5,357 nucleotides of DNA from a virus (IMGVR_UViG_2693429676_000008); one strand, 5' to 3'. Shown: positions 489 to 5,319, counted from the first letter of the stretch. Numbers and translations are program-made. The notes: generated from the sequence alone by a model not told the origin.

Positions 489-1175
489 ATGACCCCAATA
501 AACATATTTATGACAGTTGCTGATTTCAAACGGCCCAAATTGGAGCTCCCAAACGGGGCAAACAAACTACTACTGCACTCTTGCTGTGCTCCATGTTCCG
601 GTGAGGTGATGGAGGCGCTTCAGGCCTCGGGAATCGACTACACCATCTTTTTCTACAACCCGAACATTCATCCTCAGAAAGAGTATTTAATTCGTAAGGA
701 TGAGAATATTCGCTTTGCTGAACAACACGGCGTGCCGTTTATTGATGCTGATTACGACACAGACAACTGGTTTGAACGAGCCAAAGGAATGGAATGGGAG
801 CCCGAACGAGGGATCCGTTGCACCATGTGTTTTGACATGCGTTTTGAGCGGACAGCGCTGTACGCCGCTGAAAATGGTTTCAGTGTGATCAGCAGTTCAC
901 TGGGCATTTCACGCTGGAAAAATATGCAGCAGGTTAACGACTGTGGGCGGCGAGCCGTCGCGCATTATCCGGGCATGGTGTACTGGGATTATAACTGGCG
1001 CAAGCAGGGCGGCTCGTCCCGTATGATTGAAATCAGCAAGCGCGAAAAATTCTATCAGCAGGAATATTGTGGCTGTGTGTATTCTCTGCGCGATACCAAT
1101 CTACACCGCAAATCTCAGGGACGCCCTCTTATCAAAATTGGTCAACTCCACTACGGTAAAGAAGAGAAGGAGTGA
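489..1175 (+). CDS. queH: QueH-like (DUF208 family) putative cobalamin-independent epoxyqueuosine reductase homologue
   Basis: 228-codon ORF with the N-terminal HSCCAPCS motif, a central RCTMC motif and a C-terminal YCGCVYS motif, the cysteine pattern I associate with the QueH/DUF208 Fe-S family. Start is uncertain (ATG 489 or in-frame ATG 510; neither has a strong Shine-Dalgarno). Assignment is from motif memory, not a search. Confidence 0.75.
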
Positions 1176-2288: not shown

Positions 2289-2309
2289 GATAGTCTATTT
2301 CATTAGGTA

Positions 2310-2332
2310 GGTAATGACTCCAACTTATTGAT
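2310..2332. repeat. IS1 terminal inverted repeat (insB-proximal end)
   Basis: GGTAATGACTCCAACTTATTGAT read directly on the + strand. Confidence 0.9.
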
Positions 2333-2828
2333 AGTGTTTTATGTTCAGATAATGCCCGATGACTTTGTCATGCAGCTCCACCGATTTTGAGAACGACAGC
2401 GACTTCCGTCCCAGCCGTGCCAGGTGCTGCCTCAGATTCAGGTTATGCCGCTCAATTCGCTGCGTATATCGCTTGCTGATTACGTGCAGCTTTCCCTTCA
2501 GGCGGGATTCATACAGCGGCCAGCCATCCGTCATCCATATCACCACGTCAAAGGGTGACAGCAGGCTCATAAGACGCCCCAGCGTCGCCATAGTGCGTTC
2601 ACCGAATACGTGCGCAACAACCGTCTTCCGGAGACTGTCATACGCGTAAAACAGCCAGCGCTGGCGCGATTTAGCCCCGACATAGCCCCACTGTTCGTCC
2701 ATTTCCGCGCAGACGATGACGTCACTGCCCGGCTGTATGCGCGAGGTTACCGACTGCGGCCTGAGTTTTTTAAGTGACGTAAAATCGTGTTGAGGCCAAC
2801 GCCCATAATGCGTGCAGTTGCCCGGCAT
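2325..2828 (-). CDS. insB: IS1 InsB (C-terminal catalytic part of the InsAB' transposase, expressed by -1 frameshift)
   Basis: 167-aa translation [56 protein letters not shown]... matches IS1 InsB and overlaps insA at the frameshift window. Confidence 0.9.
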
Positions 2829-3022
2829 CCAACGCCATTCATGGCCATATCAATGATTTTCTGGTGCGTACCGGGTTGAGAAGCGGTGTAAGTGAACTGC
2901 AGTTGCCATGTTTTACGGCAGTGAGAGCAGAGATAGCGCTGATGTCCGGCAGTGCTTTTGCCGTTACGCACCACCCCGTCAGTAGCTGAACAGGAGGGAC
3001 AGCTGATAGAAACAGAAGCCAC
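2747..3022 (-). CDS. insA: IS1 InsA (transposition inhibitor and N-terminal part of the InsAB' transposase)
   Basis: 91-aa translation [91 protein letters not shown] matches IS1 InsA. Confidence 0.9.
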
Positions 3023-3054
3023 TGGAGCACCTCAAAAACACCATCATACACTAA

Positions 3055-3077
3055 ATCAGTAAGTTGGCAGCATCACC
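3055..3077. repeat. IS1 terminal inverted repeat (insA-proximal end)
   Basis: ATCAGTAAGTTGGCAGCATCACC on the + strand, the reverse complement of GGTGATGCTGCCAACTTACTGAT. Confidence 0.9.
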
Positions 3078-3365: not shown

Positions 3366-3412
3366 ACATAACGGGCTGAACACCCATTCTACTGCGCCAG
3401 CGGAGAACTACG

Positions 3413-3916
3413 ATGGCGCATATACAACTGATCAAACAAACCTCTTCCGGATTACTTCTCCCGGCGACGCCGGAGAGTTGCGATTTTCTGCATCAAATCA
3501 AAATAGGTGAGTGGATACACGCAGACTTTAAGCGTGTGTGTAACTACGCATTCCACAAGCGTTTTTTCAAACTCCTGCAACTGGGATTCGATTACTGGAC
3601 TCCGGTCGGTGGGGCGATCACGCCTCGCGAACGAGAACTGCTGTCTGGTTTCGTTGATTACCTGTGCGAATCAGTAGGTCGGGAACATACGCCAGCTCTG
3701 AGCGAAGCCGCAGAGCAATATCTGAATACAGTTGCGACACGCAGAACCAGTGATACGGCATTGCTAAAGTCGTTTGAGGCTTTCCGCGAGTGGGTAGCCA
3801 TTCAGGCCGGATTTTACACCGAGCATTTTTATCCGGACGGTAGCCGTGGGTGTCGGGCGAAATCTATCGCGTTTGCGAATATGGACGAAACCGAGTTTCA
3901 GCAGGTTTATAAATAG
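3413..3916 (+). CDS. ybcN: ybcN-like (DUF1367-type) nin-region protein, C-terminally truncated by an internal tandem duplication that creates a TAG stop at the duplication junction
   Basis: ATG 3413 preceded by GGAGAA. The 167-aa product ends ...FANMDETEFQQVYK*. The same peptide recurs in the downstream duplicate and continues SVLNVLWNWILFRKFSSPEQVENVAAQLLEFA*, so the ancestral gene was about 199 codons. Family and name are from memory and from position immediately upstream of ybcO. Confidence 0.65.
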   Translation: MAHIQLIKQTSSGLLLPATPESCDFLHQIKIGEWIHADFKRVCNYAFHKRFFKLLQLGFDYWTPVGGAITPRERELLSGFVDYLCESVGREHTPALSEAAEQYLNTVATRRTSDTALLKSFEAFREWVAIQAGFYTEHFYPDGSRGCRAKSIAFANMDETEFQQVYK

Positions 3917-4117
3917 AGCAATATCTGAATACAGTTGCGACACGCAGAACCCGGGATACGGCATTGCTAAAGTCGTTTGAGGCTTTTCGCGAGTGGGTAA
4001 CCATTCAGGCTGGATTTTACACCGAACATTTTTATCCGGACGGTAGCCGCGGGCGTCGGGCAAAATCCATCGCTTTTGCGAATATGGACGAAACCGAGTT
4101 TCAGCAGGTTTATAAAT
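3712..4117. repeat. Tandem direct duplication, 2 x 203 bp (3712-3914 and 3915-4117), about 95% identical (11 mismatches counted by eye)
   Basis: Direct alignment of the two copies in the sequence. The unit is not a multiple of 3 and the junction reads AAA|TAG. Confidence 0.85.
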
Positions 4118-4215
4118 CTGTTCTGAATGTGCTGTGGAACTGGATTCTGTTCCGTAAATTTTCCTCTCCGGAACAAGTCGAAAATGTGGCCGCGCAGCTG
4201 CTGGAGTTTGCGTAA
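3913..4215 (+). pseudogene. Displaced 3' portion of the ybcN-like gene (second duplicate copy plus the unique C-terminal codons), lacking a proper start
   Basis: Frame 1 is open from 3913 to TAA 4213-4215 and encodes ...LKSFEAFREWVTIQAGFYTEHFYPDGSRGRRAKSIAFANMDETEFQQVYKSVLNVLWNWILFRKFSSPEQVENVAAQLLEFA. The only possible initiators are TTG 3964 or an internal ATG, with no RBS. Confidence 0.5.
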
Positions 4216-5245: not shown

Positions 5246-5319
5246 GGCCCTTTAGCTCAGTTGGTCAGAGCGAGCGACTCATAATCGCCAGGTCGCTGGT
5301 TCAAGTCCAGCAAGGGTGA
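5246..5319 (+). tRNA. tRNA with anticodon CAT, ileX/ileZ-like (probably tRNA-Ile2 read as AUA after lysidine modification; elongator tRNA-Met not excluded)
   Basis: Cloverleaf assembled by hand: acceptor GGCCCTT / AAGGGTG, D-arm GCTC-AGTTGGTCA-GAGC, anticodon arm AGCGA-CTCATAA-TCGCC, T-arm GCTGG-TTCAAGT-CCAGC, discriminator A, no encoded CCA. The D, anticodon and T arms are nearly identical to remembered E. coli ileX. Mismatches at acceptor pair 1-72 (G-G) and anticodon-stem pair 27-43 (A-C). Confidence 0.75.

Follow-up and report, generated by a model that had tools for sequence, protein, structure and literature searches.

Escherichia coli has a full queuosine (Q) pathway, in which Tgt and QueA yield epoxyqueuosine (oQ)-tRNA (PMC9508795). 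In some bacteria, QueH replaces QueG for the final conversion of oQ to Q (PMC5372724), and QueH has been listed as a cobamide-independent alternative to epoxyqueuosine reductase (PMC6461909). With regard to viruses, a survey published in 2019 did not find homologues of QueA, QueG or QueH in the viruses analyzed (PMC6884629), and our own literature search, combining QueH, epoxyqueuosine or DUF208 with phage or prophage, returned no description of a phage- or prophage-borne QueH. Here we describe a queH gene in a window of 5,357 nucleotides (the whole stretch of viral DNA that was analyzed, IMGVR_UViG_2693429676_000008; positions are counted from its first letter). A reading made from the DNA alone, hereafter the sequence-only reading, had proposed an undescribed accessory function for this gene. 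In this respect the proposal was half right: the molecule is known and already annotated as QueH in RefSeq, and it is the biology of its carriage by prophages that is undescribed.

In the list of ORFs from the window, the gene appears as an ATG-to-TGA frame of 228 aa on the + strand, at positions 489-1175. Its product gave a full-length match to the QueH family in Pfam (PF02677; E = 1.9e-65, 220.6 bits against a cut-off of 23.5), covering model positions 1-174 of 175. The QueH of Thermotoga maritima (PDB 7LC5) aligned with it at E = 5e-22 and about 30-35% identity. An NCBIfam search of the queH protein gave no match at E ≤ 0.01. Amongst phage protein families, PHROG 3217 corresponds to QueH; it bears the label "unknown function" and its profile starts at residue 41, after the CCAPC motif.

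The CCAPC-type and YCGC cysteine motifs, from which the sequence-only reading had recognized a QueH-like protein, are present as HSCCAPCS at aa 30-37 (C32, C33 and C36 in the 228-aa numbering; 576-599, + strand) and YCGC at aa 193-196 (C194 and C196; 1065-1076, + strand). Between them lies RCTMC at aa 110-114 (C111 and C114; 816-830, + strand). When compared with T. maritima QueH, C32/C33, C111/C114 and C194/C196 align with C9/C10, C87/C90 and C169/C171, respectively, and C36 aligns with D13. Two of the cysteine pairs, HxCC(AP) and RCxxC, are annotated in databases as [4Fe-4S] ligands, which we take them to be in the window protein. An exhaustive profile-free search yielded 4,755 cluster representatives at E ≤ 0.001. 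In an alignment of 82 full-length representatives of the family (50% clustering), the window protein has the majority residue at all of the strongly conserved columns listed i.e., HxCCAPC, NPNI, RCxxC...R, S-R-x-K and Q-x-Y-C-G-C. Cysteine occupies each of the three HSCCAPCS positions in 69 of the 72 representatives with a residue there; Asp13 of T. maritima is an exception to this consensus, so that it is the T. maritima protein that is atypical at position 13. A further alignment (A1), comprising 40 sequences down to 35% identity with the window protein as its first row, contained 18 invariant columns, among them all seven motif cysteines. R110, C111 and C114 were invariant or nearly so, and Q191, Y193, C194, G195 and C196 were all present, with Q, C, G and C being invariant in A1.

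An AF2 model built on A1 had a pLDDT of 95.4 and a pTM of 0.91. When this model was compared with the PDB by Foldseek, ranks 1-5 were T. maritima QueH entries (target TM 0.90-0.92, rmsd 1.2-2.0 Å), the best superposition having a target TM of 0.92 and an rmsd of 1.2 Å. The next matches were remote PP-loop enzymes, e.g., TtuA, with E around 1e-4. The sequence-only reading had named a profile-HMM search, an alignment of the cysteine ligands and a structural comparison with Thermotoga QueH as ways to check its assignment, and all three upheld it: the profile match is full length, every conserved cysteine of QueH/DUF208 is kept, and the fold is the same. Judged by sequence and model, the prophage gene is an orthodox, intact QueH, and its product is very probably an active oQ reductase.

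The true start of queH is most likely ATG 510. We take this start because RefSeq/PGAP places it there, orthologues are 214-222 aa in length, the divergent copy L006 has ATT instead of ATG 489, and the longer frame would be disrupted in copy L073, into which 1 nt is inserted between positions 489 and 510. The CDS would then run from 510 to 1175 on the + strand (221 aa plus stop), with the Pfam match, the PGAP start and 86 intact copies in its favor; the in-frame upstream extension from ATG 489 (489-509, + strand) is probably a non-coding part of the 5' leader. The frame reported at 489-1175 therefore stands, but its length is probably 221 and not 228 aa. Likewise, the gap of 147 nt reported upstream of the gene is correct when counted from the end of the upstream ORF (341) to ATG 489, and becomes 168 nt when counted to ATG 510. 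No obvious Shine-Dalgarno sequence was seen before ATG 510. At 48.6%, the GC content of queH does not stand out from that of its flanks, hence it lacks the shift in composition by which morons are classically recognized.

The block of shared sequence begins at window position 439 in 67 of the 86 related loci. This common left end indicates that approximately 70 nt of leader (439-509, + strand) move with queH across mosaic prophages. The leader contains an extended -10-like element, TGcTACACT, at 467-475, and ATGCTACAC is kept in it even in the divergent L006, whose flanks differ. A small constitutive promoter at 467-475 driving queH is possible. A scan for promoters and terminators around queH detected no canonical sigma-70 promoter and no intrinsic terminator, the 467-475 element being unscored. 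Neither a preQ1 nor a cobalamin riboswitch was detected upstream of queH at Rfam gathering thresholds, and a permissive search of 320-540 also yielded no riboswitch; the folding of the leader is not unusually stable (z = -1.6). Just 5' of the mosaic junction at 439 there is a GNRA hairpin, CCACCC-GAAA-GGGCGG (411-428), which has CCGCCC in other loci, giving a perfect stem, and is not followed by a T-run. Roles in processing or stability, or as a boxB-like site, are conceivable for this hairpin. An imperfect inverted repeat of 24 nt (79% complementary), which links the start region of queH (506-529) with a segment near its 3' end (1027-1050), is probably due to chance.

At a threshold of at least 90% nucleotide identity, queH was found in 995 of 5,426 complete E. 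coli genomes, i.e., about 18% or roughly one in five, with 985 of these 995 matches spanning at least 80% of the gene. Among the matches listed, all were annotated "epoxyqueuosine reductase QueH" in RefSeq, and the exact window protein is publicly named QueH in Shigella sonnei. As the sequence-only reading had stated, E. coli uses QueG: queG was present in all 5,426 complete genomes, including every one of the 995 carriers of queH. QueH is therefore always a second oQ reductase in this species and never a replacement, and the usual pattern of QueH occurring in place of QueG, which is typical of the enzyme rather than defining, was not seen in E. coli.

The proposed setting of the gene, in a lambdoid prophage beside hok/sok, was borne out by the annotation of the locus and by an Rfam match. 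A survey of the position of homologues in other prophages had also been suggested, and we compared six annotated loci i.e., five E. coli prophages and the isolated phage HannyBb (PP925841). These were a prophage located beside ybhA, near the mod and gal operons; the Rac-like prophages of APEC O1 and strain A10; prophages with dicB and ydfC in an O157:H7 strain and an ST131 strain; and HannyBb itself, in which queH (33011-33697) is annotated as hypothetical. The gene was found at an equivalent relative position in all six. In the five prophages, it is preceded by the replication genes and by a DUF977 or small hypothetical gene, and in HannyBb the preceding genes are annotated as O-like, Ren-like and a short methyltransferase ORF; in every case it lies upstream of nin-like genes and the Q antiterminator. 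As befits a moron, queH is thus an accessory gene between conserved phage modules that is variably present, with 82% of genomes lacking it. HannyBb is the only isolated phage that we counted as a carrier. Other protein matches from phage collections were rejected as phage QueH, as they were mostly unannotated small faecal contigs or bacterial-looking records of approximately 280-380 kb. The label of PHROG 3217, together with the "hypothetical" annotation in HannyBb, indicates that phage annotation pipelines miss QueH.

The Rac prophage of E. coli K-12 (NC_000913.3 1,421,983-1,425,239) has the rzpR pseudogene and then trkG directly after ydaV-ydaW. In the Rac prophage of APEC O1 (L003), whose gene order matches that of the cryptic K-12 Rac, the intervening region comprises DUF1627, DUF977, an intact queH, hok, doc, nin-like genes, Q, tRNAs and lysis genes. 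The lack of queH in K-12 can thus be attributed to deletion of the segment between ydaV and the lysis genes from its Rac.

Outside the E. coli/Shigella cluster, the closest proteins were 75-90% identical to the window protein and derived from Enterobacter, Erwinia, Providencia, Proteus, Photorhabdus, Pantoea and other genera; those named in their source were all called QueH. The window protein was 84-90% identical to chromosomal QueH proteins of other Enterobacterales in non-phage neighborhoods, and every such locus that was opened had ordinary chromosomal surroundings without phage genes. In Providencia, the chromosomal order is arsC-dapE-...-tmcA-queH-...-purC, and in Erwinia it is purL-queH-two-component system-glnB-hmp-glyA; the Photorhabdus locus is likewise chromosomal and devoid of phage genes. 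The gene adjoins dcm-vsr in an assembly labeled Pseudomonas cerasi, and in two further loci it comes after genes for GNAT acetyltransferases and for a LysR-family regulator, the latter gene being transcribed divergently. An identity of 84-90% to chromosomal QueH argues for a captured housekeeping queH, and not a diverged fold or paralogue. By all sequence indications, its capture from an enterobacterial chromosome was recent.

All 86 copies of queH (80 IMG/VR loci and the six annotated loci) were intact, representing 24 nucleotide alleles and seven protein alleles. Between alleles, the Nei-Gojobori dN/dS was 0.02-0.05, with 12-46 synonymous versus 1-12 non-synonymous differences per pair. For the same prophage pairs that gave 0.02-0.05 for queH, the corresponding values were 0.09-0.10 for ydaV, 0.09-0.21 for DUF977, 0.34-0.40 for DUF1627 and 0.46 for ydaT. 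The dS of queH (0.09-0.45) was also lower than that of flanking genes (about 0.4-1.6). Taken together, the lower dN/dS and the lower dS indicate that queH is the most constrained gene locally and that the module has spread over divergent prophage backbones. The selection behind the low dN/dS of queH may have acted in the phage and not in the host.

Immediately downstream, the neighboring locus has the components of a hok/sok type I toxin-antitoxin module: a Hok ORF, an overlapping mok and a sok/hok RNA region. The hok promoter that the sequence-only reading had placed 20 bp after queH is present as a sigma-70-like site for the hok mRNA (TTGATT-18-TAGAAT; 1197-1226, + strand), but the distance needs correction, as the -35 hexamer begins 21 nt after the stop codon. 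The 5' region of the hok mRNA with the sok antisense target (1233-1408, + strand) matched Rfam RF01794 at 117 bits, against a gathering threshold of 59 (E = 4.6e-27), and the start of this match, 1233, lies approximately where transcription from the promoter-like site at 1197-1226 would be expected to start. Also on the + strand, mok (1346-1558) overlaps hok (1403-1558; 51 aa), which was identified by Pfam HOK_GEF (E = 4e-23), NCBIfam Hok and PHROG 251. The slot just 3' of queH is a cargo hot spot. Among 84 loci, hok/sok directly adjoins queH in 68, and one further locus has an IS3-family element between queH and hok (69 of 84 with hok/sok in total); a Dcm-type methyltransferase and an NgoMIV-family endonuclease, i.e., a type II restriction-modification system, occupy the slot in 14 loci, and a DUF1971 gene does so in one. 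In APEC O1, an additional Doc-family toxin gene is located further downstream.

Several other features of the window were recorded. An IS1 element (2309-3076; InsA and InsB frames, - strand) follows a 5' fragment of a DUF1367 gene (2112-2295). A second DUF1367 5' end (3391-3574), 184 nt in length and 94% identical to 2112-2295, belongs to the following DUF1367 gene, which starts at 3413. A single intact DUF1367 gene, located right after a hypothetical gene and with no IS1 annotated, is present in the closest E. coli genome. Within the DUF1367 gene there is a tandem duplication of 203 nt (3712-3914 and 3915-4117, 95% identical), and since this length is not divisible by three, the reading frame is broken: the ORF ends at 3916 (167 aa), with the C-terminal part forming a separate ORF at 3964-4215. 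The DUF1367 gene is probably inactivated in this strain. Towards the right end of the window, a tRNA gene with a CAT anticodon (5246-5319) was called Met by ARAGORN and is annotated as tRNA-Ile in a near-identical prophage, in which Arg, Thr and Gly tRNAs come after it and no queuosine tRNA (Asp, Asn, His, Tyr) is present.

Of the functions considered, the one that we favor, with a probability of about 0.6, is that of a functional captured QueH that gives the lysogen a B12-free last step of queuosine synthesis. The sequence-only reading had listed B12-independent queuosine maturation amongst several options, and comparisons of sequence and structure make it the most economical of them. According to this model, a lambdoid phage would have captured queH from an enterobacterial chromosome, after which the module (approximately 70 nt of leader plus the gene) would have moved at a fixed place, between the replication genes and the variable cargo slot, in Rac-, Qin- and lambda-like prophages. 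All E. coli hosts have a cobalamin-dependent QueG of their own and would supply the oQ-tRNA substrate. The iron-sulfur QueH would reduce oQ to Q at position 34 of tRNA-Asp, -Asn, -His and -Tyr, thereby providing the last step with an additional route that needs no B12 and by which lysogens could finish Q when cobalamin is scarce. E. coli is not known to synthesize cobalamin de novo, and accumulates oQ without B12; it is for this reason that a benefit would be expected when cobalamin is scarce. We infer enzyme activity, expression in lysogens from the candidate promoter at 467-475 and a B12-related benefit. The odds that B12-independence in the lysogen is the benefit for which queH has been selected are, in our estimation, roughly even.

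Since queH is oriented like the early-right operon, it may be expressed only in lytic growth. The same enzyme might then serve the phage, with QueH produced from the early-right transcript converting host oQ to Q and tuning the decoding of NAU/NAC, as a lytic auxiliary gene. This would fit with the co-orientation of queH with the replication genes and Q, with no terminator predicted between them, as well as with its carriage by HannyBb, an isolated, viable phage. It would also fit with findings in Shewanella, in which phage infection raises queG expression and Q and lowers oQ (bioRxiv 10.64898/2026.03.05.709803), meaning that the oQ-to-Q step responds to infection. However, queH is intact and strongly constrained in defective-looking Rac-type prophages, the phage tRNA genes 3' of Q (Ile/Met-CAT, Arg, Thr, Gly) include none for a Q-tRNA, and most related lambdoid prophages do without queH (82% of genomes). 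Moreover, we know of no difference in decoding between oQ and Q, which counts against a tuning of host tRNA in the lytic cycle. On balance, we consider such a role unlikely.

The identity of 84-90% to non-phage chromosomal QueH, and the consensus residues at the strongly conserved columns of the family, also speak against the suggestion in the sequence-only reading that the QueH fold has been repurposed, whether for defence, counter-defence or 7-deazaguanine modification in DNA or another substrate. This suggestion draws on the fact that queH borders the cargo slot, with its hok/sok module or type II restriction-modification genes, and on the use of other queuosine-pathway folds in phage DNA modification (PMC6884629). 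PADLOC, however, gave no match for the queH product, and the gene after queH varies, which argues against a fixed partner. Within 20 kb on either side of queH in prophage L001, and in the portions of HannyBb examined, none of TGT/DpdA, QueC, QueD and QueE was annotated; with no TGT/DpdA or preQ0 gene there, a deazaguanine would have no route into DNA. The window itself was correctly described as having no other queuosine gene, its remaining ORFs matching DUF1367, YbcO, DUF1133/Q and Hok only. We therefore regard a repurposed fold as very improbable. A functionless passenger, linked to the hok/sok addiction module or recently acquired, might be suspected from the presence of hok/sok directly 3' of queH in 68 of 84 loci and from the greater likeness of queH alleles in dS, relative to flanking genes, which suggests recent spread. 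Such a status is contradicted by the dN/dS of 0.02-0.05, the absence of a single broken copy in 86 and the coverage of at least 80% in 985 of 995 matches; furthermore, queH is kept also where a restriction-modification system or DUF1971 replaces hok. We find this explanation scarcely credible.

Returning to a QueH that acts in the lysogen, an intact, strongly constrained and predicted B12-independent enzyme for the last step is encoded on a prophage in approximately 18% of complete E. coli genomes; the APEC O1, ST131 and O157:H7 strains compared here are among the carriers. Because K-12 lost queH through the deletion in Rac, standard work on E. coli queuosine describes a B12-dependent last step. 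Should QueH work in lysogens, natural isolates limited for cobalamin would depart from the K-12 textbook picture in the oQ/Q status of their tRNA, and queH would illustrate how a phage auxiliary gene can target a tRNA modification. More tentatively, and with the odds somewhat against it, this may be the first enzyme from the queuosine-specific tRNA branch to be described as virus-borne, expressed from its own promoter in lysogens and rendering about one-fifth of E. coli cobalamin-independent in this step, with an altered oQ/Q balance that measurably affects translation, gut fitness or the outcome of infection.

With respect to known systems, prophage QueH would catalyze the same reaction as E. 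coli QueG, oQ34-tRNA to Q34-tRNA (PMC5372724), and 995 genomes have both enzymes. QueG, however, has an unrelated fold, needs cobalamin and is encoded by a core gene, whereas queH is accessory and prophage-borne (18%). The QueH of T. maritima (7LC5, 7LC7, 9DEU; DUF208/IPR003828/PF02677) shares its family, fold and CC/CxxC/CGC cysteines with the window protein, which differs in having Cys36 where T. maritima has Asp13 (the D13N mutant is PDB 9DCO) and in possessing a basic C-terminal tail of approximately 25 residues that is common to the enterobacterial orthologues. Chromosomal QueH proteins of Enterobacterales are closer still, with 84-90% identity over the full length, equal length and an equal tail, but the prophage gene has its own leader of 70 nt, which is absent from the Providencia and Photorhabdus genes. 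Finally, the clusters of Hutinet et al. (2019; PMC6884629), consisting of DpdA with FolE/QueD/QueE/QueC, are likewise phage-borne genes of the queuosine pathway. Those 7-deazaguanine clusters combine the preQ0 branch with a DNA transglycosylase and act on DNA, whereas queH encodes a lone, late-step tRNA enzyme.
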